Positions 15,537-33,307 of a DNA stretch of 53,999 nucleotides are shown piece after piece; within the stretch, counting starts at the first letter, position 1, and the number at the start of each line of letters is the position of its first letter. The translations under genes and the position numbers were made by a program. This DNA comes from a virus. Lineage: Duplodnaviria; Caudoviricetes. The notes under the pieces were generated by a model. It ran no database searches. It was not told the origin of the DNA and was given only the letters and a program-made list of their open reading frames with translations. Location of the stretch: the IMG/VR virus record IMGVR_UViG_3300034061_004173, positions 1 to 53,999 of that record. One strand, written 5' to 3'.

Positions 15537-16942
15537 TGGATAATAACGTACAAAAAAGAATAGAAGACCTTGAACAATTAGTTCTTAATGCACCTGACGA
15601 TACTGTTAGAAAAATCGCTCAAGAACAATTAGATAAAGTTAAGGAACGTCAAAAAATAAATGTTGACAAAGATTTTTCAGGAGTAATTACTGCAATTAAC
15701 TCACTAATTGAAAAAACCTATAATTCATCAACCGTAATGTCAAATCAGCAAATTGATGAAGTCATTGCTGAAAGATTGAAAAAATTAAAAATCAATGAAA
15801 AAAATCTATCAAGTGAATTAAAAGAACTTATAGGTCAAACCAAAACAACCGTTATACAAATTAACGAAGTTAAAGTATCATCTACTTCAGGAACAAGAGG
15901 TAGAAGATTAGAAGATGTTTTGCTTTCTGATTTAGAAGCACAAAACAATGTTTATTTGTATGGCGAGGCAGGAACAGGTAAAACTTTTATTGCGGGAGAA
16001 ATTGCTAAAAAAGTGAATTATAAATTAATCACATTAAACTGTAATCAATTTACTTCTCCATTAGATATTGTGGGTGGTCAAACCATTGAGGGATATAAAG
16101 AGGGTAGATTAACAGAGGCTTGGGGTAATATTGATTTAGGAACAAACCCACTTGGAGAGCCTTACGTTGGCGCACTTTTACTTTTGGACGAGTTACCTAA
16201 AATTGACCCAAATACTGCGGGTATTTTAAATGACGGTCTTGCTAAAATTAAAGACGGAGTTAAAAAGTACGAGGGTAATGGAAAAACAGTTTTTGTACCG
16301 CCTACTATTATGAATGGTAATGGGGAATTGATTGAAAAGAAAAAAATATATGTTATAGCAACAGGTAACTCATTGTTAAACGAAACTAATAAAGATTATG
16401 AGGCTAACTTCAAACAGGATTTGTCTTTACAAGACCGTTTTGCAGGAAGTTGTTATAAAATTACATATAATTACAAGTTTGAGTATGAAAAGATTATGAC
16501 TAAAATTAGTACTAAATCATTACCAAATGTAATAATTGACTTGACTTTTGCATTTAATTTCCTTTCGCAATTGCGTATGAAAATTGTTGAATTGGAACTT
16601 ACAGGAGTTGCTTTCGTATCTACTCGTTTAATGATTGTATCAAGAGATACATTTGTTGCTTACATTGCTAACAGAGAATTAGCACCTAATAATATTGCAG
16701 AACCTAAAAAAATAAGTGAAGTTGTTAAATCATTTATGTCTTTATTTAAAAAAGACCAAAGAGAAAAAATCGAAAACGAATTAAGTGCTGAATTTAAAGA
16801 GTTTTATGATATGTGTGCCGTTAAAGAAGCGTTGCCTCTTGACCAATTGAATGAATCTACTAAAGAACAAAGAGATTTGGCGACATTAATTATTGACAAC
16901 GCAGAGGCAAATTACGCAAGAGATAACGCAATTCCACTATAA
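15536..16942 (+). CDS. MoxR/CobS-like AAA+ ATPase
   Basis: GEAGTGKT Walker A; LLLLDE Walker B; IATGN sensor I; LQDRF arginine finger; STR sensor II. Confidence 0.85.
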   Translation: MDNNVQKRIEDLEQLVLNAPDDTVRKIAQEQLDKVKERQKINVDKDFSGVITAINSLIEKTYNSSTVMSNQQIDEVIAERLKKLKINEKNLSSELKELIGQTKTTVIQINEVKVSSTSGTRGRRLEDVLLSDLEAQNNVYLYGEAGTGKTFIAGEIAKKVNYKLITLNCNQFTSPLDIVGGQTIEGYKEGRLTEAWGNIDLGTNPLGEPYVGALLLLDELPKIDPNTAGILNDGLAKIKDGVKKYEGNGKTVFVPPTIMNGNGELIEKKKIYVIATGNSLLNETNKDYEANFKQDLSLQDRFAGSCYKITYNYKFEYEKIMTKISTKSLPNVIIDLTFAFNFLSQLRMKIVELELTGVAFVSTRLMIVSRDTFVAYIANRELAPNNIAEPKKISEVVKSFMSLFKKDQREKIENELSAEFKEFYDMCAVKEALPLDQLNESTKEQRDLATLIIDNAEANYARDNAIPL

Positions 16943-16945
16943 AAA

Positions 16946-18529
16946 ATGGGAAGAGATTTTAGAACGCTAAAAGACAAATTAGAAATTTATTTTTTCAATT
17001 CACAGGAACAAATGATTCGTACTGTGGAGGATTATCTTGCGCAATACCCTAACCAAGTCGATTCTATAAACAGACAAGGAACAACTGACGATAACATACG
17101 GTCAAACCCGAGTTTTTACGGATATGACCCAAATAGCAGTATGTCAATTGCGGAACAATACTCTTATGACCAATTAAGAAATTTTCCTGATATGCCTTTG
17201 CTTTCAGAGGCTATTAATAAATTTGAAGTTATTAAAAAAGGATTGGATTTGGGTGGAGATTTTGATGCTTCAAAAATAAAATTCACGTCTTTACCGAGAG
17301 GGGTATTTAATTTCGGTTTAGCATCTAAAGGTCTAATAAGAAAAAAAGAGTTTTACGATGTTGAAGCAAAAGAAGTTATTGACGAAAAAATAGTAAAAGA
17401 GGAAAAGTTAAATAATATTAAGATTTTTTACTATCTGAAAAACGGTGTTAAACATTTTGTTAGAAAACAACAAAAAGGCACTATGTTGGTAAAAGACAAT
17501 TTTTTAGACGTAGAGGTAAATTATGACGAAAATCAGAAAATTTGGCTACCATACAAAGACGGAAAAGTTTTTAATGGTAAAGGCAAAAATATGTTGAGTT
17601 ATGCCACTACTACTAAAAAGGTTTATATGTATCGTGAAAAACTTGGTGGCGGTGTTTCTCCTTATGTTGATTTGTTTGTTGGGGTTAATGGTTTAGCGGA
17701 TTTAGATACTGAAAATATGTTGGCTAAAAACCTTTCTGCTTTCATTGTTGCTGATATTTTAGAAAAAGCAGGGGTTAAAGTTAGAATTTACGGATTAAGA
17801 ACATACGTTGAGGAAAGAGAAGAGTTATCAAGCGGTAAAGTAGTTGATAAAGGACAAGCAGTTTTTATTGCTTATGCTATAAAAGAATACGGAGAACAAA
17901 TAGATTTTGCCCGTCTTGCCTCTTTTACTTCTGATAAACGTTTTTTTAGAGTAAATTTATGGAGAGTTGCTTCTGCTTTGAGAAAAATGGAAACAGGAGC
18001 GTATAAAGTAGGTAAGGCTTATTCTTTATATGGTGGAGAAGATGATTTATACAATACTTTTTCGATGTTTAAGAATTGGGTTTTCAATCAAAAAGGGACA
18101 GTTAAATTTGACACTAAAATAAATGATAAAAATTTAATGGTTTTAAGTGGTTTGCCGACAGTTGATAATAGCGATAAATTAACAGGGGTAAATGCTGATG
18201 CAACATTTAGAAAAATAGAAAAAGAGGTTTATAGAACTTTGGATTATGTAGGTATGCTTTTAACTAAAAACCCAAAAGCATTTGTGAGTAAAATTTACAA
18301 AAGAGAAATAGAAACGCCAAAAATAGAGCAATATTATTCAAATCCTAAACAAGAAATCCGTGATTATTTAGAGAGTTTAATTACAAGTAATTTAACTATT
18401 GTTCCTCAATATGACCTTGCTGATAAAGATTCTCCTGATAATAGATTTAGCACACCTTTGAATGAAGAACCAAGAATTACTGAAAGAACAAACGAATTGA
18501 TTGAGGTTATTAACAATGTAATCGTATAA
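16946..18529 (+). CDS. Putative vWA-like partner of the AAA+ ATPase
   Basis: Follows a MoxR-type ATPase; VDLFVGVN..AFIVADILEKAGVKVRIYG resembles CobT/vWA cores; no canonical DxSxS. Confidence 0.5.
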   Translation: MGRDFRTLKDKLEIYFFNSQEQMIRTVEDYLAQYPNQVDSINRQGTTDDNIRSNPSFYGYDPNSSMSIAEQYSYDQLRNFPDMPLLSEAINKFEVIKKGLDLGGDFDASKIKFTSLPRGVFNFGLASKGLIRKKEFYDVEAKEVIDEKIVKEEKLNNIKIFYYLKNGVKHFVRKQQKGTMLVKDNFLDVEVNYDENQKIWLPYKDGKVFNGKGKNMLSYATTTKKVYMYREKLGGGVSPYVDLFVGVNGLADLDTENMLAKNLSAFIVADILEKAGVKVRIYGLRTYVEEREELSSGKVVDKGQAVFIAYAIKEYGEQIDFARLASFTSDKRFFRVNLWRVASALRKMETGAYKVGKAYSLYGGEDDLYNTFSMFKNWVFNQKGTVKFDTKINDKNLMVLSGLPTVDNSDKLTGVNADATFRKIEKEVYRTLDYVGMLLTKNPKAFVSKIYKREIETPKIEQYYSNPKQEIRDYLESLITSNLTIVPQYDLADKDSPDNRFSTPLNEEPRITERTNELIEVINNVIV

Positions 18530-18533
18530 AATT

Positions 18534-18809: not shown

Positions 18810-18826
18810 TTTAATATTTTTGTAAA

Positions 18827-19894
18827 ATGGAGTTGAATTTTGATTATAAAGAGGGTTGTTATTTATTTAACGGAACAAGTTTCCCCGAAGTAGTAATACA
18901 TAAAACTATCTATAAGTTAGTTACTATTACATTTCAGGAATTTGGCGATTATAAGCCTTTTGGGTTTAGAGTTTATGATTTAACTAATAAGTTAGACATA
19001 GAACTTTTAAATGAAAAATATACAAAAACAATGGCTGAACAAGACCCTGATAATAGGTATGGTGTTCAGTTAGGGGCAATAATAGAATATGATTACAAGG
19101 ACTTGATTTATTTAAGAATTATTGATAAAAAAATATTATCTTTCGTACTTCAAAGACCTTTGTTGTTTGATTATATAAAGGCAAGAGATAAGTATTTAGT
19201 TGCGGACGCTTTAGATAGAGTTAATGGTTTACAAGCAGAATTTTCGGCTACTTGGCAACAATATTTTTTTACGCCTTTAGAAAGCCAAGAAAACATTGAT
19301 TGGGATATAAAATTTCCTCCAATTGATTTAAAGCCTAATATTAATGAGAACTTGTTAAAAGACGAGTTTGGCGATAGTTTTACCGATTCAATAACTGTTT
19401 ATGATTTTTTAGGCGTAATAGATACTGATACTTTTAATAAAATACCTAACGAGGAGTTAAAAGACGAAATTTCTAAATTAATTAAAAAGACTTTAGAAAT
19501 AGCAAAAGAAAATCAGGCTATCGGAAAAGAAGACCCGAATAAGAAAATTAAAGAGCCTACAAGTAAATTCTTTGTTGAGTTGACATACAACGAAAACGGA
19601 GAACAAACTTCAGAAGCCGTAGAGGTGTTTGCGAGAAATCAATTTGACGCTCTTGAAATAGCGAAAAACGAATTTCTTGAAAAATATAAAGGGGATAGTA
19701 CATACGAACTACTTTTTATCAGTCCGATTGAAAACAAAGATTCAGTAGTACCAATAAGTGTTGGGGAAGAAATTTTTGAAAAAGCGGTAAAAGAGAAAAG
19801 AAGTAGAAACAATAAAAAAACACAGGAACAAATATTTAAAGAAATTGACGAGGTTGACCCCGAAGATTTGTTATCACTAATAAACGAAATTTAA
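18827..19894 (+). CDS. Hypothetical acidic protein
   Basis: 355-aa ORF in operon. Confidence 0.7.
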   Translation: MELNFDYKEGCYLFNGTSFPEVVIHKTIYKLVTITFQEFGDYKPFGFRVYDLTNKLDIELLNEKYTKTMAEQDPDNRYGVQLGAIIEYDYKDLIYLRIIDKKILSFVLQRPLLFDYIKARDKYLVADALDRVNGLQAEFSATWQQYFFTPLESQENIDWDIKFPPIDLKPNINENLLKDEFGDSFTDSITVYDFLGVIDTDTFNKIPNEELKDEISKLIKKTLEIAKENQAIGKEDPNKKIKEPTSKFFVELTYNENGEQTSEAVEVFARNQFDALEIAKNEFLEKYKGDSTYELLFISPIENKDSVVPISVGEEIFEKAVKEKRSRNNKKTQEQIFKEIDEVDPEDLLSLINEI

Positions 19895-19915: not shown

Positions 19916-22900
19916 ATGAGCGAATTACTTAAAAAATACGAAAGTATAGACCAATCTAAATTAAACGAGGGGGCTATTAAAATACTTAACAGAGTTAAAA
20001 CTATAACTTCTGACTTTACTACCGATGATGCAAAAAATAACAAAATTGCTGATGAGGTATTAAATGAGATTATGAAAAAGTTTCCTGACTCTGTAAAAAT
20101 TGTTAAGCGTACTCCAAAAGCAAAACCTGCACCAAAAAAAGTTGCTAAAGCAAAAAAAACTGCGACTACTTCAACTGCTAAAAAATCAGGTAACAACATA
20201 ATGTCTGTTGCTAAAGAAATTCAAAAAGCAGGGGAGTCTTGGAAAGATGCTATGGAACGTGCGAAACAAGTTTTAAAAGAACGTAGAGAGCAAGTAATTC
20301 AAAAACAAAAAACAGAATTAGAAAAACTTTATGCTCTTGTTAAAACTAAAAAAGAGTTACAAGGTTTTGCTTTCGGCAAATCCGATATTGAGCGTGATTC
20401 AGTAAGAGAATCAAAATCAAAAGGGTCAAGAGTTGTAACAAGAGAGGGTTTTACATCTAATCAATATAAACGAAATGTTCCAAATAAATTAGGTAGAAAA
20501 TATTGGGAATCTCGTGAAAACCGTTCTGACCGTTTAGCACCTAATTACCAAAAAGATATGCCTTTGTTGGCAAGTGGTGGTGGGGTAGATGAAATAGAAA
20601 ATATTGATTTAGGTAATAATTTTGAAATTAAATTAGAAAAATTATTTTATGAAAGTGGCGATTTTACTTATGGTACATCTTTGTATTATAAAAATAAGTT
20701 ATTTAAGTTTTTTACCGTTATTCCAAATGCAACAAAAAAAGAGGCTATTGACAATGTATATAAATATTTAAAAACATTGTCAGTTTCTCAAGAAGTTAAT
20801 GAAACAAAACAATATGTAGGAAATAAAATAGAACCGCTTTATACAATTTTTTATAATGACAGAGGGGGCGAACATTTAAGAAAAGCAAACTTTAAAAAAG
20901 AAATTGAGCAATTTATAACTGATGTTAATGCGATTAATTCTAAAAAATTCGCTAACGGCGGTTCTGTAAATATGGATAAGCACGTTTGGGAGGGTTGGAC
21001 TGTTGGAGATTTTATCGAAGAATTAGAGCCTACATTCAATCAAATTATGAGCGGTCGTTCTTGGCAAAAACCGTTTAAAACTAAAGAAGAAGTTAAAGCG
21101 TGGGCTATGGATAATCAATCATACTACAAAAAGAATATTCCTGAAGTAGTAAATTATTTTTGGGCTAAAGCGCAAAGTAAAGACAACTATGCTGACGGAG
21201 GCGACATAAAAAAACTTGAAAGTTCTTTGTTAAATGCAGAGAAAAAGTATCGTAAAGCAATTTTGTCTGAACAAGTTGGAATTATTTCTCCTGAAGAATT
21301 AAAGAGAGAAAAAATAAAATTGGAAGATATAAGAGCAAAAGTCAATGAGTGGTATGCTACAAAACCTATTGGTAAAAAAATGGCTGACGGCGGAATGAAC
21401 AATTTAACAATACAAAATGTTTCTTTTGCTAAAGGCGGTAAAATTCAACATACTTTTAAAGTGGGAGAAATTGTTTCTTTTCCAACTCAAAAAAACCGTT
21501 ATATGGATAAACCGATATTAGATATGATTAATCATTTTTCTAATAAAGAACTCGTTATTGAAAAAATTAACGAAGACAAACCATATAATCTTGCAGATGT
21601 TTATATTAAGGAAACGGGAGAAAAATTAAGAGATTTAATTTTAAATCCAAAAGTTTTAAAAATTTATCCTGATAATGTTGAAGATGAAAAAAGTGTAAAA
21701 ATTAAAGATTGGTATTTAGAAAATTATCCAAGTGATGATTTAGGCGAAGAACTGAATGATGAAGTTACGTTTGAAGATATGTGGAATGAAGATTATAAAA
21801 AATATGACATTTATCAAGTTATGGGTGTTGGAGATAGCCTTATAAGAGAAAGACTTTTTGAGCATTTAGCCGAAATAAAAGGGGTTAGTTATGATGTTGT
21901 TTACAGAAAATTATTTTCAAATATAGAATATGCAAAAGGCGGTTCGGTTAGCAACGAAAGAATGTACAACTTCTTACAAGACGATTTGCAGAAATTAGAA
22001 GAATCAATTAAAAGTGCGGATATGGAAGAAGTAAACAGATTCTTTTCATATTGGCTTGGAAGTTCAAATCACTTAAAATCACTTGAAACTAAAACTAATG
22101 AAAGAATGTATAATTTCTTAAAAGACGATTTAGAGAAATTAGAAAATGCGGTTGAAAATAATGATACTGAAGAAGTAGAAAGATTTTTCTCTTATTGGGG
22201 GCAACACTTGGAATCATTAAAAATGGCTAACGGTGGCTCACTTCAATATTTGACAGACCCTAACTTTGGAAACTTCCAAAATACAGGTGCTTTTGAAAAA
22301 GGAGGAAATATAGACGGAACAATGACCTTTTACCAAAATGATTATGACAAGTTAATTGGAGATTCGTCTGAAGATTATCCTTTTTTCTCTGTTAAATCAG
22401 GAAGTTATTGGGAGATAAAGAAAGATAAAGATGAAAAAACTGTTGCTAAATGGTTTCCTAAATCAAGTTTGTTAAAAATTACAAGACCTCAAGATAAAGA
22501 TTTAGTAGAATGGTTAAATAGAAATAGTTATTTATCTCAAGATGAATATGAAAAATTTGAACTTGGTGGTGCATTAGAATTTTCTGATGTTAAAAAGTAT
22601 TATAATGAAAATTGGGAAGATTTAAAAAGTAAAGGGTACAGTCCTTTACAAATTTTAGATGATAAAGCACAGGTAAAAGGTATCAAAAAATATTTGGATA
22701 GCGGAGAAATTATAATCTCAAAAAATCCGTCAGGACACTATGTTACTTGGGCTAAAAATTCTTTTGAACTTGGTGGCGCATTTATGACAACTGATTTAGC
22801 AGGTCATTCAGGCGGAGGAACAGGCGGTTTAAATGCCAACTTACCTTTAAGCGGGGTTTCAGGAACATACTATACAGGTCTTGTTGGAGAAACAGGTACT

Positions 22901-25900
22901 ATGTCAAGCGGAGAATTGTTTATGGACGGTGGGGCTATGGCTCAAAACCAACAATTAATTGATGGTGCTTCTCAATCTTATGCAAATTACTATTTGACTA
23001 ATGATGGTATAAGTCAGGCTTCTTTCAAAAAAGGTGGTGTAATTAAAAATCAATACAAAGACAGAACGGATAAAGATATTTGGAATAGTTTTTCTATTAC
23101 ACAAAGACAACATTTTTTAAAAGACCATTTTGAAGAAATTCAGACAGTTGCAACAAATAGTGGTGTAAACAACATTAACCATTTTGGAAACCTTATTGGT
23201 TGGGCTAATAGAGATTATGAAGACTTACCAACATATATTAAATCCCCATTTAATTACCATACAGAAAGTGGTCAATACGCAAGTGGTGGAGTTATGGAAA
23301 AAAACCAACAAGTAATTGATGATGCATCTCAATCATATATTAACTACTATTTGGGCGAGGGCGCAAGTCAAGGTATTTATAAAGACGGTGGTTCTTTATA
23401 TGATAAGGCAACAAAAAGTCAATATTTAGAAAAATACTCTAAAAATGGTAATTTAGTAAGAACTGCGGAACAATTTGATAGTGGTAGTTGGGTTGTAAGC
23501 GTTTATAGTGGTATTGACATTTCAGGAGAGTATTCAAATGAAGAGTTTAACAAAAGAATAAAAAAATATTTTAGTAATTACGAAAATGGTGGTTCTATTC
23601 CGAATAATTACGAGGGAAGAACTCCTGCAAATATTTGGAAAATTTGGACAGAAGAGCAAAGAGAACAATTTTTAATTGACCATTTGATTACAGATAGAAA
23701 TTTAAACAAAAGTACAGAAGATTTTTTAATTCAGTTTAAATATTATCCATATTCAAATTTACCACCATTAGCAAAAACTAAATTAAGATACCATATTCAA
23801 AATGGTCAATACGCAAAAGGTGGTTCTATTCCTAACAATTACGAGGGTAGAACTCCTGAAGATGTTTGGAATAATTGGACTTCCGAACAAAAGACACATT
23901 TTATGCAAGACCATAAATATAACATTTTTGGCGACAGACAAATATCTAAAGAAGATAGAGAAAAATTTCTTATGACTAAATTTAAGGATTTATCAAGAGA
24001 TTTAAGAATTATAGTAGAAGACCACGTTCAAGAGGGTCAATACGCTTATGGTGGAAAGACTAAAAGCAGACCATCTATGAGAGAACTTTATATTGAGCAA
24101 ATTGCTTATTTAACAAATACAAGAGAAGTGGGAGTTGATGCTTTTGCTAAAGAGCATAATCTAACTGATTCAGAATTATCCAATTTAATGTCAGGTCTTG
24201 GTAGAAAAATGATAAGCCAAAGCGACTTTATTACTGCTTTAGTAGGAAATAAAAACAACCCTAAACAAAAAGAAGTTATTGCTTTTGCAAAATCTGATAA
24301 AGCATATAAAATGGCTGACGGTGGAGATTTAGGTTACTTTGACAATATGAGTGAAGAAGAAATCTTTAAGTCAACTGTTGTTTTTGACAACAACGGGAAG
24401 TCTTACGATAGATATACTGTTTTCACTCCTGACGACTCTGTTTTTGGAATGAGCGAAGACGCAAAAGGTTTTAATCTGTACATTGGCGATAAAAGTGAAA
24501 TTCCTATGGGGAAACATTTAGGTAAAAAACTTACTTCTGTTCCTCAAGGAATAAGAATGGCGGTGCTTAATAGAATGAAAGAAGAATATGCTGACGGCGG
24601 TGCATTAAAATTCAAAGTAGGTCAAGGAGAAAAATACTTTGATAAAAAAGAAAAAATGCAACTATCAATAGGAAAAGAAAGTGATATTCCTAATGTGTAT
24701 AATGTAATTTGGGAAGACGGAGAACATTCTATTTATTCTGCTGACAACATTAATTTCTTTATAAGTAAAGGGATTTGGAAAAAATTAGATAAAATGGCTG
24801 ACGGTGGCGGAATTCGTTCTAAAGAAGAATTGAAAAAAATATTTTCTGAAAAAGAAGCGATAGTTAAAAATCTTACTCCAAAACAAATTGCTGAAATGTG
24901 GAACGAAAACAGTTTTGGCGTAAAAGAGGGTATAAGTAAACCAATTACTATTGAAGAGGCAAAAAGACCGAGTATGAAAATTTATTTGGAAAACTTGCTT
25001 ATTGAAAACGAGTTAACTGAAGATGAACAGGCTCAATATTTTGCTAAAGGCGGATTTGTTGCAACAGTTGAATTTAACGTAGGGGATATAGTTTGGGATA
25101 AAGGAAATAAAACTTACGGAACTGTTATGAATAATTTCGGCGACCCTATTAATGGAGATGGCGGAGAATTAAGATTGGATTCGGACGGTATGCAAGTAAT
25201 TTTCTTATACGACAAGAGTTACGAAAACAGAATAGGCTATAATCTTGTAAAATTAGGAGATAAAGGCGATACAGGAAAATTTACCCCCGTTGTACTTGAT
25301 GAACTAAAAGCAAGTGCTGAAAGAATGATTAAGTATAGAAGAGATGCAAAAGACAAAGAGGGAGTTAAGATTTATCAAGAAATATACAAAAGAACTCTTG
25401 ACGGAGAATTCGATTCTATGGTGGGTCGTGCTAAAGCGACTACTTCTAACAAAAAAGGTTCAGTCGATTATACTTATGTTCCTAATAAAGATGTTAAGGA
25501 ATTGAGCGTTGTAGTTAAAGGCGAATTAAAGAAATTAATGGGTTCTGATATACTTGACGGGGTTTACGTTAAAAATTCAGCGAAATCTACTGCAAAAGTA
25601 GATGTTAATGCCGTGTTCGCTAAAATTCTTAAAGATGCTAAAGAGGCAAAAAGCGGAAAGACGAAAATGTTTACCGCTACTGATTTAAAGAAATTAAATC
25701 TTGAAATGGTTCAAAAACTTGTAGAGGCAGGTTATACCGAACAACAAATAAGAAATATTATTTTTGGATATGCTTTTGATAACGAAATTGTGGCTGACAA
25801 CGAACTTGAATACGATAAGGGTATTTTCTCTTACGAAGACACTTATGTTAAAAGTAAAATAGAGGGTTTAGTCGAGGCTCAAAAAAATAAAGAGTTTGCG

Positions 25901-28426
25901 GTTGGTATTGAATACCCTGACTTTGATTGGCAAGGTATCATAAAGAAATATAAAATATCTTCAAAACCTAAAGACATAACTGAAAAACAAAAAGGTACTT
26001 CAGGTTCTACCGAGAACTACTATGAAGTTTTTGTTGGAGAAAATATAGTGATAGGTCATAATTACGGATATAAATGGCTTGATGCTGACGGAAAAGTGTT
26101 AAGTAATTATATGGAAGAGGATAAAAAAGTTTCTGACCCTACTAAACAAAATGCTTGGCAAAAAGAAAGAGGACAAAAAGCAGGTTTCAACGGAGGTTGG
26201 TGGACTATTATTTCTTCTAAAATAGAAATTATTGACGATGTATTGAAAACTTTACTTGCTCAAAAGGGTAGTTACTGTAAAGAGATACAATTTTATGACG
26301 ATTCCTTACCTAAAACTTTAAAGGAAAACAAAATTGATTTTGCTGACGGTGGAGAGTTAAACAAGGACAACGTTAAGGTTGGAGATGTTTTAGTGGCTAA
26401 TACAGGTGTTGAGGTAAAGGTTGTGGAATTTGACCCTAAATTCGGTGGAAGAATTAGGGCGGTTAGACTTGACGAGTATGCGACAGGCAAAGCATCTCAA
26501 TTTATGCCTCTAAATAAATTTACTCGCAAAACAAACAGTAAAATGGCTGACGGCGGATTTATGAACAATGTTTATTCTCACGGCGGACAAATGGAAGTAA
26601 ATGACATTAATTCTGAATTAGAGGATTTTGATTTAGATAATTTAGACCCTTTTGAAACAATGCAATACGAAAACTACTCAAAAAGTATGAGTAAAGTTGA
26701 TGCGTTACAAGTTTTAATAAATACTGTTGAGGGCGACTATTCTCAATTAAGCCCTGAATTGGCTGAATTGGCTGAAATGCAAATATCGCAGGAACAATGG
26801 GACGAAGCATCAAGAGAGATGTACGGTTATGCTAACGGCGGATTTATGAATAATGTTTACGCTAAAGGCGGAAGTTTAAATGTTGGGGAAGAGAGAGAAT
26901 TAAAAACTTTTGTAAATTCATTATTTAATCGAGCAAAGAATAAAATAGCCAATGACAAAGGTAATTCGCTTTTTGTGCTTTCAAATACTGTAATTGCAAG
27001 TAAAGACTCGTTAGGAAATCCAAGTTTTTATTTAGGTGTTAAAAAAGTTCAAAATTCAAGACCAACTTATGTGGTTGGTAGTGGTTTTTTAAGTTCAGAT
27101 ATGTTGGTTTACGAATCTTATAAAAAAGATTCAAGATTTTTAGAAACACAATCAATAGTTGAAGCAAAAAAATTCTTAACTGACAAAGTTAAAAAACAAA
27201 TTTTACATTTAAGAAATAGAAGTGTAATGGCTGACGGTGGGTTTATGAATAATGTTTATGCTGACGGCGGATTTATGAATGATGTTTACGCTGATGGTGG
27301 AAATATAGAAAAGGGAAGCACTATAACTTTAAAAAATGATGTTTATGCTTCATACACAAATGAATTAATACCAAAAGGAACTAAATTAAGGTTGATTGCT
27401 ACGCCTCCAAAAGTATATGGAAAAAACGCTTATTTTGTTTATGCAAAAACATTAGATAATAAAGAAGAAATTAGAACTGACAAGTCAAATTTTGTCGAAA
27501 AAATAAAAGAGTTAGAAAGTTATTTTGCAGACGGCGGAGAATTAAAAGGTAAATTTTTAGCAGAAATTAAAGTTCCTTACAATTTTGAAGATGTTGTTGA
27601 AAACGAATTTGAATTTACTGAATTTTTATCAAAAGTATTAACTAAAAAATGGTTTGGTAATGGTATTTGGGGTGTTAAAATAGTAAAACCATTATTTGAA
27701 AGAGATTATTCAAAAAGAATTGTTGTTGAAATTGAAATTCCCGTAGGAGTTACTCAAGGCGGTGGTTTAGACAAATTTGACGTAGGAGAGTTCATATCTA
27801 AAACATTAACTAAAAAATGGTTTGGTAATGGTATTTGGGGCGTTGATATAGTTAAAGGTTATGCTGACGGCGGGTTTATGAATAATGTTTACGCTAAAGG
27901 TGGGGGTGTAGAAGATATTTCAAAATCTTTGAGCGTTAATGAACTTTATGACCAAGACGGAAATTTAATGGGATATACTATTAAAGATAAATACAATGTA
28001 AATGGTAAATATACATTATCTAAAACCAAAGAAAGAGCAGAAGAAAATTTACAATATTTAATTGATAACCCAAGCAGATTGGCTTATTATCGTAAAAATG
28101 AATATGCTGACGGCGGAATGTTTGAGGAGAATGACGGATTTATGAGAGCAGATAACGAATTCAATTACAGATACCCTACAAAAGACGTTTATATCGAAAC
28201 ACTTGATGAGCCAATTGATTTAACAAGTACAGTTACTATTAAAAGTAATGAAGTAGTTATAAGTCCAATAGATGAAAATATCGACTTAAATGACGATAAT
28301 AGAATTAGAGCAATAATGACTCAATCAAACAGAGGTTCTGCTGAAAACTTTGGAAAGATAAACCCAAGAGCATTTGAATTTATTGATTTACCAATGCCTA
28401 CATCAAACAAACATAAAAACGATTAA
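19916..28426 (+). CDS. 2836-aa putative polyprotein: small domains separated by about 33 [YFML]-x-x-G-G motifs
   Basis: Hand count of about 33 motifs (YADGG, MADGG, FADGG, YAKGG, FAKGG, YANGG, FELGG...); basic N-terminus; internal duplicated modules. Confidence 0.8.
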   Translation: MSELLKKYESIDQSKLNEGAIKILNRVKTITSDFTTDDAKNNKIADEVLNEIMKKFPDSVKIVKRTPKAKPAPKKVAKAKKTATTSTAKKSGNNIMSVAKEIQKAGESWKDAMERAKQVLKERREQVIQKQKTELEKLYALVKTKKELQGFAFGKSDIERDSVRESKSKGSRVVTREGFTSNQYKRNVPNKLGRKYWESRENRSDRLAPNYQKDMPLLASGGGVDEIENIDLGNNFEIKLEKLFYESGDFTYGTSLYYKNKLFKFFTVIPNATKKEAIDNVYKYLKTLSVSQEVNETKQYVGNKIEPLYTIFYNDRGGEHLRKANFKKEIEQFITDVNAINSKKFANGGSVNMDKHVWEGWTVGDFIEELEPTFNQIMSGRSWQKPFKTKEEVKAWAMDNQSYYKKNIPEVVNYFWAKAQSKDNYADGGDIKKLESSLLNAEKKYRKAILSEQVGIISPEELKREKIKLEDIRAKVNEWYATKPIGKKMADGGMNNLTIQNVSFAKGGKIQHTFKVGEIVSFPTQKNRYMDKPILDMINHFSNKELVIEKINEDKPYNLADVYIKETGEKLRDLILNPKVLKIYPDNVEDEKSVKIKDWYLENYPSDDLGEELNDEVTFEDMWNEDYKKYDIYQVMGVGDSLIRERLFEHLAEIKGVSYDVVYRKLFSNIEYAKGGSVSNERMYNFLQDDLQKLEESIKSADMEEVNRFFSYWLGSSNHLKSLETKTNERMYNFLKDDLEKLENAVENNDTEEVERFFSYWGQHLESLKMANGGSLQYLTDPNFGNFQNTGAFEKGGNIDGTMTFYQNDYDKLIGDSSEDYPFFSVKSGSYWEIKKDKDEKTVAKWFPKSSLLKITRPQDKDLVEWLNRNSYLSQDEYEKFELGGALEFSDVKKYYNENWEDLKSKGYSPLQILDDKAQVKGIKKYLDSGEIIISKNPSGHYVTWAKNSFELGGAFMTTDLAGHSGGGTGGLNANLPLSGVSGTYYTGLVGETGTMSSGELFMDGGAMAQNQQLIDGASQSYANYYLTNDGISQASFKKGGVIKNQYKDRTDKDIWNSFSITQRQHFLKDHFEEIQTVATNSGVNNINHFGNLIGWANRDYEDLPTYIKSPFNYHTESGQYASGGVMEKNQQVIDDASQSYINYYLGEGASQGIYKDGGSLYDKATKSQYLEKYSKNGNLVRTAEQFDSGSWVVSVYSGIDISGEYSNEEFNKRIKKYFSNYENGGSIPNNYEGRTPANIWKIWTEEQREQFLIDHLITDRNLNKSTEDFLIQFKYYPYSNLPPLAKTKLRYHIQNGQYAKGGSIPNNYEGRTPEDVWNNWTSEQKTHFMQDHKYNIFGDRQISKEDREKFLMTKFKDLSRDLRIIVEDHVQEGQYAYGGKTKSRPSMRELYIEQIAYLTNTREVGVDAFAKEHNLTDSELSNLMSGLGRKMISQSDFITALVGNKNNPKQKEVIAFAKSDKAYKMADGGDLGYFDNMSEEEIFKSTVVFDNNGKSYDRYTVFTPDDSVFGMSEDAKGFNLYIGDKSEIPMGKHLGKKLTSVPQGIRMAVLNRMKEEYADGGALKFKVGQGEKYFDKKEKMQLSIGKESDIPNVYNVIWEDGEHSIYSADNINFFISKGIWKKLDKMADGGGIRSKEELKKIFSEKEAIVKNLTPKQIAEMWNENSFGVKEGISKPITIEEAKRPSMKIYLENLLIENELTEDEQAQYFAKGGFVATVEFNVGDIVWDKGNKTYGTVMNNFGDPINGDGGELRLDSDGMQVIFLYDKSYENRIGYNLVKLGDKGDTGKFTPVVLDELKASAERMIKYRRDAKDKEGVKIYQEIYKRTLDGEFDSMVGRAKATTSNKKGSVDYTYVPNKDVKELSVVVKGELKKLMGSDILDGVYVKNSAKSTAKVDVNAVFAKILKDAKEAKSGKTKMFTATDLKKLNLEMVQKLVEAGYTEQQIRNIIFGYAFDNEIVADNELEYDKGIFSYEDTYVKSKIEGLVEAQKNKEFAVGIEYPDFDWQGIIKKYKISSKPKDITEKQKGTSGSTENYYEVFVGENIVIGHNYGYKWLDADGKVLSNYMEEDKKVSDPTKQNAWQKERGQKAGFNGGWWTIISSKIEIIDDVLKTLLAQKGSYCKEIQFYDDSLPKTLKENKIDFADGGELNKDNVKVGDVLVANTGVEVKVVEFDPKFGGRIRAVRLDEYATGKASQFMPLNKFTRKTNSKMADGGFMNNVYSHGGQMEVNDINSELEDFDLDNLDPFETMQYENYSKSMSKVDALQVLINTVEGDYSQLSPELAELAEMQISQEQWDEASREMYGYANGGFMNNVYAKGGSLNVGEERELKTFVNSLFNRAKNKIANDKGNSLFVLSNTVIASKDSLGNPSFYLGVKKVQNSRPTYVVGSGFLSSDMLVYESYKKDSRFLETQSIVEAKKFLTDKVKKQILHLRNRSVMADGGFMNNVYADGGFMNDVYADGGNIEKGSTITLKNDVYASYTNELIPKGTKLRLIATPPKVYGKNAYFVYAKTLDNKEEIRTDKSNFVEKIKELESYFADGGELKGKFLAEIKVPYNFEDVVENEFEFTEFLSKVLTKKWFGNGIWGVKIVKPLFERDYSKRIVVEIEIPVGVTQGGGLDKFDVGEFISKTLTKKWFGNGIWGVDIVKGYADGGFMNNVYAKGGGVEDISKSLSVNELYDQDGNLMGYTIKDKYNVNGKYTLSKTKERAEENLQYLIDNPSRLAYYRKNEYADGGMFEENDGFMRADNEFNYRYPTKDVYIETLDEPIDLTSTVTIKSNEVVISPIDENIDLNDDNRIRAIMTQSNRGSAENFGKINPRAFEFIDLPMPTSNKHKND

Positions 28427-31400
28427 TTTACAATTACTATGAAGTTATTTAATAAAACAATAGACAGACAATTATTCAAACAATATTCACTTGGTAGCGA
28501 CCTCTCTAAACAAGAGGTTGTTGTCAAGATTTTCAATCCGACAGGCGCAGGAAATTGGTTCATATTAAACTCTGACCCTGAAGACCCTGATTACCTTTGG
28601 GCTATTGTTGATTTAGGATATGGTGCTGAAGTAGGTTCAGTAAGCCGTAACGACCTTGAAACTTATAGAGGAAGATTTGGATTAGGTTTTGAACGTGATT
28701 TAGGGTTTGACCCTATAAACGCAGAAGAACTTTATCAAGGACTTCGTAACGGGGAATACTATGCTGACGGTGGAGAAATTGAAGTTGTTTATGAGCGTTC
28801 GGTAGGTTCAAAAAAACCAATTAAATTGCTTCTTTTGAATAAAGGTAAAGAGCAAAAAGGATATACTTTTAGTGGCAAAGACCAAGTTGCGGTTCTTGAA
28901 AATTACAATCGTAATAAGCAAGAGGATTTAGAAAGACTTTGGAACTTAAAAGGTTACGAAACTAAATATGCTGATGGCGGGGAAGTATCTTCTCGTTTAT
29001 CAAATAATTTTCTTATTGTGAAAATAAAAGGTAAGACATATAAAACGTGGTTTCCTAATTGGTTATCTATAAATAAAAATTTCCTTGAAAAACTTAATAA
29101 AGAAAACAAAAGTGTTTTAATTGTAGAAGAAGAAAATGGAAATAGTAAACAGTTTGAAGTTCCAAATAGAGATTTAATGGATATTTGGCTAAATGATAAA
29201 TCTGATAAAAAAACAAGAGATGTTTTGATTCAAAAAGCAATAGAGTATAATAATAATTCTTTTGCTGACGGTGGGAGTTTTGATGAAAATATAGAATTTA
29301 AAGATGTTTCTGATGAATATGGAGAAAAATATGAAGTTTTTGTAAATGGAATTTTACAAGGAAATATATCCAAATCTGATGATAAATATTTTGTAAATAG
29401 CGCATCAACAAGAGGAGGCAAATCATATCCAAGTAAGTTTTTTGAATCAAAAGATAAGGCAAAAAAATATATTTATTCTAAAACTAAAGAATTATATGGG
29501 ATAGGCTCTGTTAAAAAACTAATGGGTTATGCTAAAGGCGGAAACATCGCTGATTTTACCGACAATCAACAAATGATTATGAATCAAAATGTTGAGTTAG
29601 AACATCATCACGAGGAATTGGAAGATATTTTAGAAGATAAAGTACCTGTTCCTGCTTGGGTAGTTGCAAAAATGGAAACTGCAACGCAAAACCTTTCAGA
29701 CATTACTCACTACCTTGACGGGCAAAAAGAAATAATGGAAGACCAATTAGAAGAAGATGATGACGATGACGATGATGAAGAAATGGAAACCGAAGAAATT
29801 GAAAACAAAGAAGTTGTCGAACCAATAGTTGTTACTGCGGGAGATAAAACAGAAATTACAAAAAACTTTACAGACGATGCTTGGGATAACTTGAGAGGGT
29901 TCTTGAAAGGAATGGAGGGTATTGACTTACGAGATGACTATACGTTTGATTACAAGGACGAACAGTATGAAGTTGAGCCAATCATTAACTCTGACGAAAA
30001 TGGGGTTTCAAATGCCGTGTTTACGATTTTTGACGGGGACGGAGAAGAAGTAGGAGATATTTCTTATATCCGTGAGGGTGGAAAACAAAAGTTTAATGCT
30101 AACTCGGAATTCTTTAGTTGGAATAATGCGAAGTTTGAAGACGGTGGTTTTATGAATAATGTTTATGCTGACGGGGGATATTTTGATGGTGCAATTCCAA
30201 AAACTTCAAGTTATATGAATACTTATGCTGATGGTGGTAATACCGCAATAGACAACTTAAATAAAAATACAGAATTAAGAGAAAAGATGATTTCTTATAT
30301 TGTGAATATGAAATCCACAAGTCGAATGTCTGATAGACAATATGATGCTTTAGAAAAAAGAATTTCCGAAAAGTCATTTGCTCAATTAAAAAAAGAATAC
30401 GATGCTTTAAAAGGAAATAGTTCTTACGATAAAGGCGGAAGTTTAAGTGAAAAAGAACAAATATTGGAAGCATTAGAAAGTTATGATTCTTTTAATAATG
30501 AATTTGAAGAAGACCAACAATTTTTCGTTACTGATGATTTATTAGGTTTCATTAGAAGTTTAAAAGTTTCTGATAAAGAATCAATTGTTGAAGCGTTATC
30601 TGACTACGATGGAGATGATTTTGTAGTGACATCGCCTTTATTGTCTTTTGTTGAAAATATTAATGTTAGTGGTAATTACGCCAAAGGTGGAAGTTTAGGA
30701 ACTGTAAATCCAAAATACAAAAATTCAATTTTAAGTATGATTAACTATAAAATCGACAAGCGTATTGGAGATTCTATGTCTGATATATCATATACAGAGG
30801 CTTTGAATTTAAAAAACAAAATAAATAAAGACGAGCCTATTTCAAGCAAAGAAAAAAATTATATATCTGAAATGGCTTCTTATTTAAGTTCAAAAAGATT
30901 ACTTGATAAGGTGGCTAATATTTCATATACTGAAAGTTTCGATTTCTTTGATAATATAGTTTCAATGGCTAAAGGCGGAATGGTTGTTACATCTGTAAAA
31001 GATATACCAAATTTCAAAGAAAGACTTAAACAAGGTAGAATTACTTATCGTGGGTTAGGTATGGGAAAATTGGCTAATGATTTTTATAAATTAGCAGGTA
31101 CTTCAGGAACAAGAATTAAAGTTGACAAAAAAGAATATTTTATAACAGACGAAGAGTTTGATATGTTCTCAAGAGATTCTGACGGGAAAATGATTATAAA
31201 ATTTGAAGCACCTGCAAGAAAAGGCTATGCTGATGGTGGTTTTATGAATGGTGTTTATGAAGACGGTGGTTTTCTTGACAAATACGAAGTTGATAGATTC
31301 AAACAAGTTATGAATGGTAAAGCAATCGCAAAATACATTGTAAGATTGCAAGATTCATTCGGAAATAAAGAAACTTATGTTTTTGGAATTAAATTAAAAG

Positions 31401-32068
31401 ACCAATTTAAAGGTTGTGAGTTAGTTCCATACGAAGTTCTTTATGGAAGTTGGTCTGATTCAGGAACTCCTTTTGCTTTAAGTAATTTACAAGTTAAAAG
31501 ATTAGTTCCAAATAGTTTTTCTAATATTGAATTAGACGAACAGGAAACAGAAATGCTTGTGAATAAATTAGTAAATAAAAATCAAGCAGGTGTTGAGAAA
31601 TTTTTAAACTCTCAATTCTTCTATTTAAACTACAATCAAACATTTAAAGATGTTTTAAGAGGACACCTTGCTCTTTCTATTGCAAGAGTTTCAAGTATTG
31701 AATTTGAAATCGTACAAAAATTTGCTGACGGTGGTCAGGTTAGAAGTTTTGATGGCATTTTTGGTAAAGAAATAATTTTCAAAGAAGAACAAGTTGGAAA
31801 ATTTACAATAGGAATTAGTAGTGGGTTTAATAACAGAAGACACGTCTTTATATATGAGGGAGAAGTAGGAAGATATGGTGGAAAAGGATTGCCAAAAGAT
31901 TTTAATATGTCGCCACAACTTTCTGCTGAATTCGCTGATAACTTTTATTCTAATTTAAAACGAAAAGTTGAAAACAATCAAGATTTAACACCTTTTGAAT
32001 TAATAAAAGAAGTAAAGTTTTTGTTTGCTGACGGTGGTTTTATGAATGACGTTTACGCTAAAGGCGGT
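26543..32068 (+). repeat. Dispersed 30-bp coding unit GGFMN[NDG]VYxxGG, 8 copies across two genes
   Basis: Copies near 26543, 26828, 27227 (x2 tandem), 27860, 30134, 31226, 32024; third codon positions vary. Confidence 0.9.
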
Positions 32069-33307
32069 TCTATAAAAAAAGATTGGTGGCAAACTGTTGT
32101 CAATCCAAATGAGGATTTCCATAATTACGACAACAGAAAACCTATTGATTGGGAAGTTGATGATTTTAAAGAATGGGTTGTAAGCAATTCAGATTTAGAC
32201 GGTAACGTAGATAAAGAGGTTTTAGATGTTATAAAAATGCCTAAAAGCAAATTAACTGTTGAGTACTTAAATAAAAACGGAAGTGGTAAAAACAATAACG
32301 AATACTATAAAGAATTTGGAAATTGGCAATCTGCTTTGTATGATATTTTTACTCAAATGAAAAAAGACTATTTGTTTAAAAAATCAAGAAAATATATTCT
32401 TAAAGCAGATATAAAAACCGTTACAGTTAAACGTAAAGGTAAAGAACTTACTTATAATGCCTCTGACGTTTTAAATGGTGCTTATGTACTTGCTAAAGGT
32501 GGGGATATGACTTCCAAAGCAAACTATGTTGGTAAAAATGATGTTGTTGAAGTTGAGTTGAAAGATGGAAGCAAAGTTAAACCTGCTAACGGGTATTGGA
32601 TTAAGAAAGGTGCTGAACCTATTGGGGCAGAACCAACGCCTACTACTTCAGGAAAATCAGAGCCTAAAGTTGGACAAACTTATATCAGAAAAGATATGAG
32701 AGGTAATTGGAAAGCAGAAACTAACGTTGATAATTTTAATGATTACGATTGGAGAGTTTCTACAATTAAAACTTATAGCGGTAAATTGATTTCTTCTGCT
32801 CAAGGTGGAAAAACTGAACTAACAGGTAGTAAAGGTATTGTAATGTTTAAGTACACTATGTACGAAGACCCAAACTATACTTTAGAAGTTTCACAACCAA
32901 GTCGTTTAACTGAAAAGGTTGTTACTGAACAACACGAAAAAGCGTTGGCTAAATTCAAAAAGTTTATGGAAACAGGAATGTTCAAAGGTGGAGGTAAAAT
33001 TTCAAACTTTGACAAACTTTCTGCTAAAGTAGCAAAACAGTACGAGGGAAAACCTGTAAAGAGCCAATACCAAGAAGAGTATGGTAAATTCTACTCAAAA
33101 GAAGAAGCCCAAGAGGTTGGCGACAAAGTTGCAGGAAAAGTAAAAGCAATGCAACCTGCTAAAAAAGAAATGGGTGGCGAAACTAAAAAAATGAGTAATG
33201 GTCGTGAAATGCTAATAAAAGCAAATCAATTGGCTAAAGAAATTCGTAAGGACGGGGAAAGTTGGAATGACGCTAAAAAAAGAGCATTTGCACAATTAAA
33301 AAAGTAA
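28439..33307 (+). CDS. 1622-aa putative polyprotein: N-terminal DUF2958-like domain and about 17 xxxGG-delimited segments
   Basis: VVKIFNPTGAGNWF..VDLGYGAEVGSVS..ERDLGF; YADGG/FADGG/YAKGG/MAKGG/FEDGG repeats. Confidence 0.8.
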   Translation: MKLFNKTIDRQLFKQYSLGSDLSKQEVVVKIFNPTGAGNWFILNSDPEDPDYLWAIVDLGYGAEVGSVSRNDLETYRGRFGLGFERDLGFDPINAEELYQGLRNGEYYADGGEIEVVYERSVGSKKPIKLLLLNKGKEQKGYTFSGKDQVAVLENYNRNKQEDLERLWNLKGYETKYADGGEVSSRLSNNFLIVKIKGKTYKTWFPNWLSINKNFLEKLNKENKSVLIVEEENGNSKQFEVPNRDLMDIWLNDKSDKKTRDVLIQKAIEYNNNSFADGGSFDENIEFKDVSDEYGEKYEVFVNGILQGNISKSDDKYFVNSASTRGGKSYPSKFFESKDKAKKYIYSKTKELYGIGSVKKLMGYAKGGNIADFTDNQQMIMNQNVELEHHHEELEDILEDKVPVPAWVVAKMETATQNLSDITHYLDGQKEIMEDQLEEDDDDDDDEEMETEEIENKEVVEPIVVTAGDKTEITKNFTDDAWDNLRGFLKGMEGIDLRDDYTFDYKDEQYEVEPIINSDENGVSNAVFTIFDGDGEEVGDISYIREGGKQKFNANSEFFSWNNAKFEDGGFMNNVYADGGYFDGAIPKTSSYMNTYADGGNTAIDNLNKNTELREKMISYIVNMKSTSRMSDRQYDALEKRISEKSFAQLKKEYDALKGNSSYDKGGSLSEKEQILEALESYDSFNNEFEEDQQFFVTDDLLGFIRSLKVSDKESIVEALSDYDGDDFVVTSPLLSFVENINVSGNYAKGGSLGTVNPKYKNSILSMINYKIDKRIGDSMSDISYTEALNLKNKINKDEPISSKEKNYISEMASYLSSKRLLDKVANISYTESFDFFDNIVSMAKGGMVVTSVKDIPNFKERLKQGRITYRGLGMGKLANDFYKLAGTSGTRIKVDKKEYFITDEEFDMFSRDSDGKMIIKFEAPARKGYADGGFMNGVYEDGGFLDKYEVDRFKQVMNGKAIAKYIVRLQDSFGNKETYVFGIKLKDQFKGCELVPYEVLYGSWSDSGTPFALSNLQVKRLVPNSFSNIELDEQETEMLVNKLVNKNQAGVEKFLNSQFFYLNYNQTFKDVLRGHLALSIARVSSIEFEIVQKFADGGQVRSFDGIFGKEIIFKEEQVGKFTIGISSGFNNRRHVFIYEGEVGRYGGKGLPKDFNMSPQLSAEFADNFYSNLKRKVENNQDLTPFELIKEVKFLFADGGFMNDVYAKGGSIKKDWWQTVVNPNEDFHNYDNRKPIDWEVDDFKEWVVSNSDLDGNVDKEVLDVIKMPKSKLTVEYLNKNGSGKNNNEYYKEFGNWQSALYDIFTQMKKDYLFKKSRKYILKADIKTVTVKRKGKELTYNASDVLNGAYVLAKGGDMTSKANYVGKNDVVEVELKDGSKVKPANGYWIKKGAEPIGAEPTPTTSGKSEPKVGQTYIRKDMRGNWKAETNVDNFNDYDWRVSTIKTYSGKLISSAQGGKTELTGSKGIVMFKYTMYEDPNYTLEVSQPSRLTEKVVTEQHEKALAKFKKFMETGMFKGGGKISNFDKLSAKVAKQYEGKPVKSQYQEEYGKFYSKEEAQEVGDKVAGKVKAMQPAKKEMGGETKKMSNGREMLIKANQLAKEIRKDGESWNDAKKRAFAQLKK

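Follow-up and report, generated by a model that had tools for sequence, protein, structure and literature searches.

Injected phage proteins act before phage gene expression and are a main route against bacterial immunity, and few of them are known. The closest described group is the polyvalent proteins, which carry 2 to 15 domains on one polypeptide and for which packaging in the phage head, injection along with the DNA, and processing by a zincin-like peptidase were proposed (Iyer, Burroughs, Anand, de Souza, and Aravind 2017, PMC5512222, in the available part of the text). Here we analyzed the entire IMG/VR virus record IMGVR_UViG_3300034061_004173, the 53,999 bp of which are called the window, and in which three giant open reading frames (ORFs) of 2836 (A-type), 1622 (B-type), and 1667 (C-type) amino acids (aa) carry many copies of a pentapeptide ending in Gly-Gly, called the junction. 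Our results gave good support to the view that these three ORFs and three small ones upstream of them belong together as a block encoding polyvalent effector proteins of the phage.

Like the polyvalent proteins, the members of this family are giant multi-domain proteins with ART, Zeta-like kinase, ArdA, RelA/SpoT, and LPD domains (PMC5512222, same part), and Pfam families that originate from the polyvalent-protein work were matched, namely ART-PolyVal ("ADP-ribosyltransferase in polyvalent proteins") in the window and LPD11 ("large polyvalent protein-associated domain 11") in relatives. The ORFs of the window contained Zeta_toxin, ART-PolyVal, DUF5661, and DUF2958 domains of the polyvalent repertoire, which places the block and its family in this class. 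Unlike the described polyvalent proteins, however, about 30 modules are found in one chain, and most of them have no known family. The zincin-like MPTase domain (PF18818), proposed there for processing, is common in the polyvalent theme without being obligatory, and was matched in 0 of 5 contigs here. Since the words "linker" and "glycine" are absent from the available part of PMC5512222, no junction motif appears to be described in it.

In crAss-like phages, virion proteins are fused into a "huge polyprotein" of three components, for which cleavage was suggested and a zincin-like protease was named as a candidate (10.1101/2020.03.07.982082, in the part available). Those phages, like probably the present one, are Bacteroidota phages with giant proteins, and the ART ORF of the window shared 38% identity with a portion of one crAss-like giant. 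Virion packaging is known there and presumed here, and the two systems differ in the number of modules (three there, about fifty here). The 2518-aa giant of the crAss-like cr85_1 contained 0 motif copies, and gp68 of Bacteroides phage BF1-TP2 (3633 aa) contained 3 loose motifs compared with 1.57 in shuffles. Judged by these sequences, polyvalent giants do not in general carry the motif.

Cleavage next to Gly-Gly is known from other systems. Double-glycine leaders, which are cut by C39 peptidases, are N-terminal, belong to exported peptides, and have hydrophobic residues at P4, P7, and P12. Their cutting after GG, by which a short signal peptide is lost, is the feature that would recur in the present proteins, and a C39 domain was not matched on the phage contigs. 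The African swine fever virus (ASFV) precursors pp220 and pp62 and the adenovirus precursors are cut after Gly-Gly by pS273R or adenain. Here too a Gly-Gly site is repeated in large proteins, but those precursors have few sites each, give rise to structural products, and are served by a cognate cysteine protease of the CE clan, whereas C5 and C48 were not matched on the phage contigs here. The proteolytic products of pp220 and pp62 are treated in PMC10308890 (available part). In phage SPN3US, 14 A-X-E sites were reported in nine proteins, 13 of them resulting from removal of an N-terminal propeptide (PMC10052503, available part). Short targeting propeptides on internal or ejected proteins, a short consensus site, and removal after loading are features of T4 and SPN3US prohead processing that would recur here. 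The capsid targeting sequence of T4 is a propeptide trimmed by the prohead protease. In contrast to SPN3US, about 60 internal sites in six ORFs, a motif ending in GG, and C-terminal tails were found here, and of the prohead proteases, S77 and S78 were detected on none of 5 or 6 phage contigs and S49 and ClpP on none. No description of the junction motif or of a phage polyprotein of such scale was found in the literature covered, with subscription journals and supplements outside the scope, so that the earlier note on this DNA, made from the sequence alone, stands to this extent in calling the scale undescribed.

The junction motif and the modules between its copies

The A-type giant (P0001, 19916..28426) and the B-type giant (P0002, 28439..33307), both on the plus strand and with 1 Cys each, were present as the earlier note had described them. 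Two patterns were counted, a strict one ([YFM][AE]xGG) and a loose one ([YFMLIW][AEDKM]xGG), with 2000 shuffles per protein as the null. The strict motif occurred 28 times in the A-type giant, which consists of about 30 modules, and 14 times in the B-type giant, compared with shuffle means of 0.29 (maximum 4) and 0.19 (maximum 2). The loose motif occurred 32 and 17 times (shuffle means 1.58 and 1.00), in agreement with the previous hand counts of about 33 and about 17, and 10 times in the C-type giant against 0.58 in shuffles. In the logo of 49 sites, P5 was Y (.51), F (.31), or M (.14), P4 was A (.78), and P3 was D (.51) or K (.29), followed by GG, and the x-[ILVM] noticed before was recovered as I, L, M, V, or F at the second residue past GG in 92% of the sites. 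The motif was reported for the two giants and is present there, but it is not confined to them, since the four upstream ORFs at 6195-7142, 7146-7691, 7695-8951, and 8957-13960 carry it too, which brings the total to about 60 sites across six ORFs of the window. The four intervening ORFs (13962-19894) contained no motif or one weak loose match. Outside the polyvalent block, the loose motif was found in 5 ORFs of a 132-kb relative, by rough estimate no more than expected by chance.

Splitting of both giants at the motif yielded 41 modules of at least 25 aa with a median of 89 aa, and only 5 similar pairs were detected among them by BLASTP, which bears out the view that the segments are mostly unrelated. 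The junction was doubled (GG-FMNNVY-A[DK]-GG) at seven places of the two giants, six of them single decamers and one in tandem. The tandem copy is a 30-nt repeat at 27230..27301 (plus strand) of the A-type giant that encodes the decamer junction ADGG-FMNNVY-ADGG-FMNDVY-ADGG, and in IMG/VR the decamer DNA pattern was confined to 8 contigs, all from this clade.

The family is large. Related loci that share its gene order and motif density numbered 12 and 6 in IMG/VR, and comparison of the first 1,200 residues of the A-type giant with 1.84 billion cluster representatives gave 1715 matches at E <= 1e-3 (591 at <= 1e-10 and 120 at <= 1e-30), each match being a cluster at 50% identity. Among the best 150 of these, 134 new representatives contained 925 strict motifs in 130,497 residues, compared with 13 after shuffling; 100 of the 134 had at least 0.5 motif per 100 aa, and 11 had none. 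In 210 family proteins with 2,879 GG sites, the context of the GG was strict at 45% and loose at 60% of the sites, the median spacing was 70 aa, and Pro directly past GG was found at 0.1% of the sites against a background of 2.6%. The 17 giants of the window and related IMG/VR contigs contained DUF2958 in 9, LPD11 in 3 (E 3.6e-31), and DUF5661 in 1, and shorter relatives that share modules with the A-type giant carried ArdA, RelA_SpoT, ART-PolyVal, or a DNA polymerase III beta domain. Homologous domains also occur in proteins annotated as minor head protein or DarB-like. In GenBank phages, no close relative was found by megablast, and tblastn gave single modules only. No Pfam or PHROG family matched the A-type giant, and searches of solved structures by sequence with the three giants gave nothing usable.

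The borders of similarity between relatives were found to coincide with the motif. Starts and ends of internal BLASTP alignments were scored as being at a motif when they lay within 8 residues of it, and were compared with 1000 random site sets. For the A-type giant against 91 relatives (322 alignments), 68% of the starts and 75% of the ends lay at a motif, while the random mean was 18% and the maximum 48-50%. The effect was weaker for the B-type giant (44% and 38% vs 17%, near the maximum of the random sets). On the subject side, in 298 alignments to the 134 representatives, 50% and 65% lay at a motif against 16%, and the best-matched stretches in the search of 1.84 billion proteins terminated at motif positions. 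Known domains pointed in the same direction: ArdA began at profile position 1 and 6-8 residues past GG in 4 of 4 relatives, ART-PolyVal ended 8 residues before a motif and DUF2958 15 residues before one (2 of 2 for DUF2958), RelA_SpoT lay 88 residues past one motif and 47 before the next, and none of the 8 Pfam domain matches examined had a motif inside. Judged from Pfam domain borders and similarity breakpoints, the motifs thus lie at domain borders, a coincidence for which the earlier note had suggested a check.

In alignments spanning a site by 20 residues on each side, the GG was kept in 77% of 702 cases (A-type) and 84% of 117 (B-type), and the identity of the GG columns was 0.82-0.83 compared with about 0.45 in the flanks; the gap frequency around the motif was flat, 7-15% at every offset, and uninformative. 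Modules were also found to be exchanged between A and B giants of different phages. Taken together, it is well supported that these proteins are mosaics, built from small modules (median about 70-90 aa) that evolve independently and are joined by the junction [YFM]-A-[DK]-G-G-x-[ILMV], and equally well supported that the junction sits in a short inter-module linker, which is exactly the place at which relatives differ by gain, loss, or exchange of modules. In this way the pentapeptide delimits dozens of small modules in each giant. Provided that the modules act as independent effectors, the giants can be divided at the motif into units of about 70-90 aa for testing, and anti-restriction (ArdA), ADP-ribosyltransferase, Zeta-kinase, and RelA/SpoT domains are among the modules of the family.

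Conserved ends and junction codons

The ends of the motif-bearing proteins are conserved as well. The A-type giant starts with a basic N-terminal module, common to most relatives, that ends in LLASGG (aa 1-222, 19916..20581) and finishes with a conserved C-terminal module that ends in ...PMPTSNKHKND (aa 2735-2836, 28118..28426). The B-type giants have a DUF2958 domain as their conserved N-terminal module (aa 26-92, 28514..28714), with a junction motif 15 residues downstream, and a conserved C-terminal helix, LAKEIRKDGESWNDAKKRAFAQLKK (33224..33307), and a helix resembling the latter is present at aa 98-121 of the A-type giant; all these features are on the plus strand. The C-type giant (8957..13960, plus strand), in which the Pfam search and the motif scan gave a DUF5661 domain and the 10 loose motifs, has the C-terminus FENGGKIKN and its orthologues DWRFExGGKVN; 4 of 4 C-type giants end with DWRFExGG and 3-4 residues.

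The three small effector ORFs lie upstream of the C-type giant on the plus strand. The Zeta-toxin ORF (6195..7142, 315 aa, Pfam Zeta_toxin E 1e-24) contains the junction motifs YAEGG (residues 12-16) and MEEGG (residues 295-299), the second being followed by a 16-residue tail ending in PDYLRMFLGK. The next ORF (7146..7691, 181 aa) is related to the ART-PolyVal ORF at 7695 (38% identity) and terminates with FEEGG and the same 16-residue PDYLRMFLGK tail. The ART-PolyVal ORF (7695..8951, 418 aa, Pfam E 8.8e-18 at aa 47-200) has FEKGG directly past the ART domain, and its C-terminus is YSRGG followed by a 16-residue tail ending in PDYLKMFLDL. In the window and three related genomes, 11 of 11 small Zeta/ART-type effector ORFs ended with GG and 16 residues (19 once), the tail closing with PDYL.MFLGK or a close variant. 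One relative has the PDYL tail internally, with further modules fused after it, and on a contig of a Sediminibacterium metagenome-assembled genome (MAG) the A-type giant was split by an in-frame stop two residues past FADGG. Another conserved ending, GG with 7-9 residues and YSIGGL before the stop, was seen in the family representatives P0067, P0174, and P0188 and suggests that several kinds of terminal tail follow the last junction in the family.

The three effector ORFs share one reading frame, with a stop codon and one codon between neighbors, and in the relative P0072 the equivalent of one junction between the effector ORFs at 6195-8951 was fused in a single ORF; therefore genes fuse and split here via loss and gain of a stop.

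The codons of the junction were compared at 49 sites of the window and 250 sites in 15 related ORFs. The variation of third codon positions, which was previously taken as a sign of selection on the peptide, was real for YADGG, the 11 copies of which had 9 DNA versions, but Ala, Asp, and the first Gly showed a strong codon skew, so that free third positions are no proof of selection on the peptide alone. The junction Ala was GCT in 84-87% (42-44% elsewhere), the Asp was GAC in 84-89% (35-38% elsewhere), and the first Gly was GGC in 37-43% (11% elsewhere) and GGA in 6-10% (38% elsewhere), while no skew was found at the Tyr, Phe, and second-Gly codons. Part of this is due to context, since Asp before Gly was already GAC in 68% and the first Gly of any GG was GGC in 28%; the junction nevertheless exceeded these controls for Asp GAC (p 7e-5) and first-Gly GGC (p 3e-3). 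The Ala skew was motif-specific: GCT made up 87% at the junction and 44% where the same dipeptide stood elsewhere (p 6e-23). The 11-mer GCTGACGGYGG occurred 14 times against 0.02 expected, every time inside the giants, by which a Chi-like or genome-wide DNA site was ruled out. In the sequence, the -1 frame of GCT followed by GAC or AAA reads TGA or TAA. The codon skew hints at a constraint at the DNA or translation level in addition to the peptide and fits either a DNA role in module exchange or selection on translation.

Possible cleavage at the junctions and other readings

We tentatively favor, with somewhat less than an even chance, the reading that the chains are loaded whole into the capsid and that an endopeptidase cuts them at the junctions to release small proteins. 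The whole polypeptides would be loaded through their conserved terminal modules and the small ORFs via the conserved 16-residue tail past the last GG. The endopeptidase would cut at the junctions, within the capsid or after ejection, and thereby free some 50-60 small proteins and trim the loading tails. The internal proteins of T4, which lose a targeting peptide, are a parallel for such trimming. The protease would not be of the C48, C5, or C39 type, and a conserved HExxH protein encoded at 51555-52340 would be the candidate. Because the junction peptide is short and strictly kept, it is probably recognized by a macromolecule, and cutting was favored because of the removable-looking tail past GG, the start of ArdA right after GG, and the exclusion of Pro after GG. 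On these grounds cleavage at the junctions is plausible. Motif-bearing ORFs were also depleted in Cys (13 of 7,039 residues, 0.18%, vs 72 of 8,373, 0.86%, in 37 other ORFs, p 4e-9), which fits proteins that travel unfolded. If the junctions are cut, this would be the first polyprotein strategy at such scale in a bacterial virus, as far as the literature was covered, and a new protease specificity would be there to find.

Several observations weigh against this reading. Some module borders have no motif, such as the start of a widely shared module near aa 587 of the A-type giant, and the motif was lost in 16-23% of the site-spanning alignments. The tandem decamers, if cut, would give useless 10-residue peptides, and the codon skew at the junction indicates that something besides the peptide may be constrained. 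Packaging in the virion is taken over from the polyvalent-protein paradigm, and ejection with the DNA and cutting are likewise presumed. The effector polyprotein that was envisaged earlier was supported by the motif-delimited modules and by the Zeta, ART-PolyVal, ArdA, RelA/SpoT, and LPD11 domains, with cutting as its putative part. Protease searches were also negative. Pfam on 10 + 37 ORFs of the window gave Peptidase_M15_3, a cell-wall enzyme, as the only peptidase; C48, S78, C39, C5, MPTase-PolyVal (PF18818), and S77 were not detected in any of 5 contigs (the window plus four relatives, two of the latter rated complete); in the Sediminibacterium MAG, the matches to S49, ClpP, S78, C39, and C48 were restricted to non-phage contigs; and among the 25 of 27 Pfam and 25 of 45 PHROG families listed for relatives there was no capsid, portal, or protease family.

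The modules may instead be uncleaved beads on a string, that is, intact multi-domain chains in which the junction is a docking short linear motif or a hinge, which we consider rather unlikely. The absence of a matched protease in the family searches of the phage contigs speaks for such chains, as does N4 vRNAP, a giant ejected protein that is packaged unprocessed (PMC5512222, same part). BF1-TP2 gp68 and the cr85_1 giant have no motif above chance, however, so that ejected giants have no general need of it. As a docking motif, the junction would attach to the inside of the capsid shell, to a chaperone, or to the MoxR-type ATPase, for which encapsulin cargo-loading peptides are a model, and the ...YSIGGL tails of the family resemble hydrophobic-Gly loading peptides. 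As a hinge, it would form a tight turn on which the hydrophobic anchors (P5 and the second residue past GG) pack, with the modules folding singly after passage through the tail; this agrees with hydrophobic residues flanking the turn-prone D-G-G and with the resemblance of the tandem decamers to strand-turn units, but the conserved Tyr/Phe-Ala-Asp is needless for a plain hinge. The small ORFs moreover have a second conserved element past the motif, the 16-residue tail, which suggests two separate functions and not a single docking peptide. ArdA acts as a free dimer, which would be awkward inside a 1000-aa chain.

The junction DNA rather than the peptide may be what is used, as a microhomology (GCT GAC/AAA GGY GGN, 30-36 nt at the decamers) for in-frame exchange, possibly via a phage RecT-type annealing protein, with the peptide as a tolerated linker. 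Such a recombination joint, able to coexist with cutting or with uncleaved chains, seems improbable on its own. The coincidence of the similarity breakpoints with the motif is in line with it, but selection alone also predicts breakpoints at linkers. The Ala GCT, Asp GAC, and first-Gly GGC skews above the context controls and the 14 copies of GCTGACGGYGG, against the 0.02 expected, argue for it, as does a RecT gene in the 132-kb relative. The lack of skew at the Tyr/Phe and second-Gly codons and the 9 DNA versions of 11 YADGG copies do not, 11-15 nt is short for homologous exchange, the variation of P5 (Y/F/M) and P3 (D/K) preserves chemistry and not DNA, and the hydrophobic residue two past GG is conserved with its codons free. 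The same skew at Ala, Asp, and first Gly, together with the rare GGC codon (11%) at 37-43% of the first-Gly positions, would also suit a signal at the level of translation, in which internal initiation, ribosome pausing, or peptide-bond skipping gives separate products without a protease. This we regard as very improbable. Start codons were not enriched two past GG (TTG 7% vs 20%, GTG 3% vs 6%), and Shine-Dalgarno (SD)-like sequences are rare in these genes (3/42), by both of which internal translation starts at the junction were ruled out, and bacteria are not known to have a peptide-bond-skipping element.

The junction may finally be dual-coded, its peptide being the cutting site of a polyprotein and its DNA (GCT GAC/AAA GGY GG) a microhomology for in-frame module exchange; modules would then be exchanged between phages and between A, B, and C giants, and the arsenal would be a self-shuffling cassette array, a combination that we think doubtful. 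If it were true, a single loading signal on each chain would suffice to deliver some 50-60 different small anti-host proteins, to be freed by an unclassified protease, and the family, with its at least 1,715 clusters, would amount to a catalogue of thousands of uncharacterized injected effector domains, ready delimited. The link between junction, breakpoint, and codon bears on the diversification of phage arsenals.

Returning to cutting of the junctions, the adenain/Ulp1-type protease that the earlier note had in mind was found neither in the window nor on any of the related phage contigs that were searched (C48, C5, and C39). Of the CE-clan cysteine proteases, C48 and C5 were absent from the 5 phage contigs, C63 being outside the search. 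Phage_capsid and Gp23 capsid families matched none of the phage contigs either, and the family-library scans left out 1-19 kb and 45-65 kb of the related contig G001 and 100-132 kb of the MAG contig. The protease negatives carry little weight, because the capsid families were unmatched too, the relatives were scanned in part, and the families considered were 25 of 27 (Pfam) and 25 of 45 (PHROG). The scans of 76 ORFs of the 132-kb relative (Pfam, PHROGs) and 38 of a 102-kb relative (PHROGs) found tail fibers, a baseplate hub, RecT, and nucleases, and in Pfam the peptidases of the 76 ORFs and of the window were of the cell-wall type only, apart from a weak LRAT match. A C48 peptidase of the host was rejected: the strong match in the MAG lay on a 3.5-kb contig with 41% GC, in a 795-aa frame without similarity to the phage that looks like a foreign transposon-type protein, and a second C48 match in the MAG was weak and on a host-like contig.

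A regular-expression scan for HExxH in 47 ORFs of the window gave a single match and none in the giants. This ORF (51555..52340, plus strand) encodes an unclassified 261-aa protein with HEFSH and without a Pfam, PHROG, or PDB sequence match. It has 926 homologue clusters of near-constant length, and in the homologue alignment the HExxH was invariant in 118 of 118 sequences, as were the downstream acidic residues E202, E204, and D206. A homologue with 66-92% identity was present in 8 of 9 motif-giant contigs, the miss being a 17-kb fragment. By these features it is a candidate zincin-type peptidase and the only protease candidate seen, and it could equally well be merely a conserved core gene. 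Two other regions were tried and rejected as proteases, the A-type module at aa 1714-2146, which showed no conserved Cys/His/Ser pattern, and a 355-aa ORF at 18827-19894, in which no Cys, His, or Ser was invariant in 5 homologues.

Other genes of the block, the genome, and the host

Between the C-type and A-type giants lies a four-gene block on the plus strand that is conserved in three relatives. It is headed by a 524-aa ORF without the motif (13962..15536) that contains a long low-complexity (GQGE)n stretch of roughly 110 residues, encoded at 14466-14796 by imperfect 12/18-nt repeats that extend over about 330 nt. The second gene encodes a MoxR/AAA_5-type ATPase, also without the motif (15536..16942, Pfam AAA_5 E 3.6e-12), of which a 69% identical copy was found on the Sediminibacterium MAG contig. 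The third ORF (16946..18529, 527 aa) had a weak DUF7192 match (Pfam E 1.3e-4, below the cut-off) and Atlas feature matches of 0.89-0.90 to viral DUF7192 clusters. The fourth is the conserved 355-aa ORF at 18827..19894, to which no function is assigned and for which Pfam, PHROG, PDB, and Atlas gave no lead. The MoxR ATPase and DUF7192 were considered as obligatory partners of the giants and rejected as such, being present in closer relatives and absent from two distant motif-bearing loci (10-kb flanks). In the distant relatives L052 (4373-9373) and L053 (4963-9981), an ORF of 1667-1673 aa with similarity to SNF2 helicases stands between the motif-bearing ORFs; this SNF2-helicase ORF (1,670 aa), in the same gene block, had 0 motifs.

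The window has a G+C content of 28-35%, all its long ORFs are on the plus strand, and the completeness of the record was 77% by CheckV. Its phage nature was indicated by its status as an IMG/VR virus record and by a tail fiber, a baseplate hub, and a weak large-terminase match in the window or its relatives. Close to its start, at 452-955 and 959-1603, the window contains an HNH endonuclease ORF and one resembling DNA methyltransferases, and neither tRNA genes nor Rfam families were found across the whole window.

Gene starts without a Shine-Dalgarno sequence and A-rich leaders are typical of Bacteroidota. In the window, SD-like sequences were found at 3 of 42 gene starts and the leaders were A-rich, and the single match among 185,579 species genomes was the 132,486-bp contig of the Sediminibacterium MAG, the gene order of which was the same as in the window. 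Since SD-like starts are rare and this contig was the sole species-genome match, the host is probably a member of Bacteroidota. Both ends of this contig are inverted copies of a tandem 11-mer, GGGAATTTCGT, with at least 4 repeats, and these look like the terminal inverted repeats of a complete linear genome. The gene direction of the contig switches near 34.5 kb, with the genes pointing outward-in.

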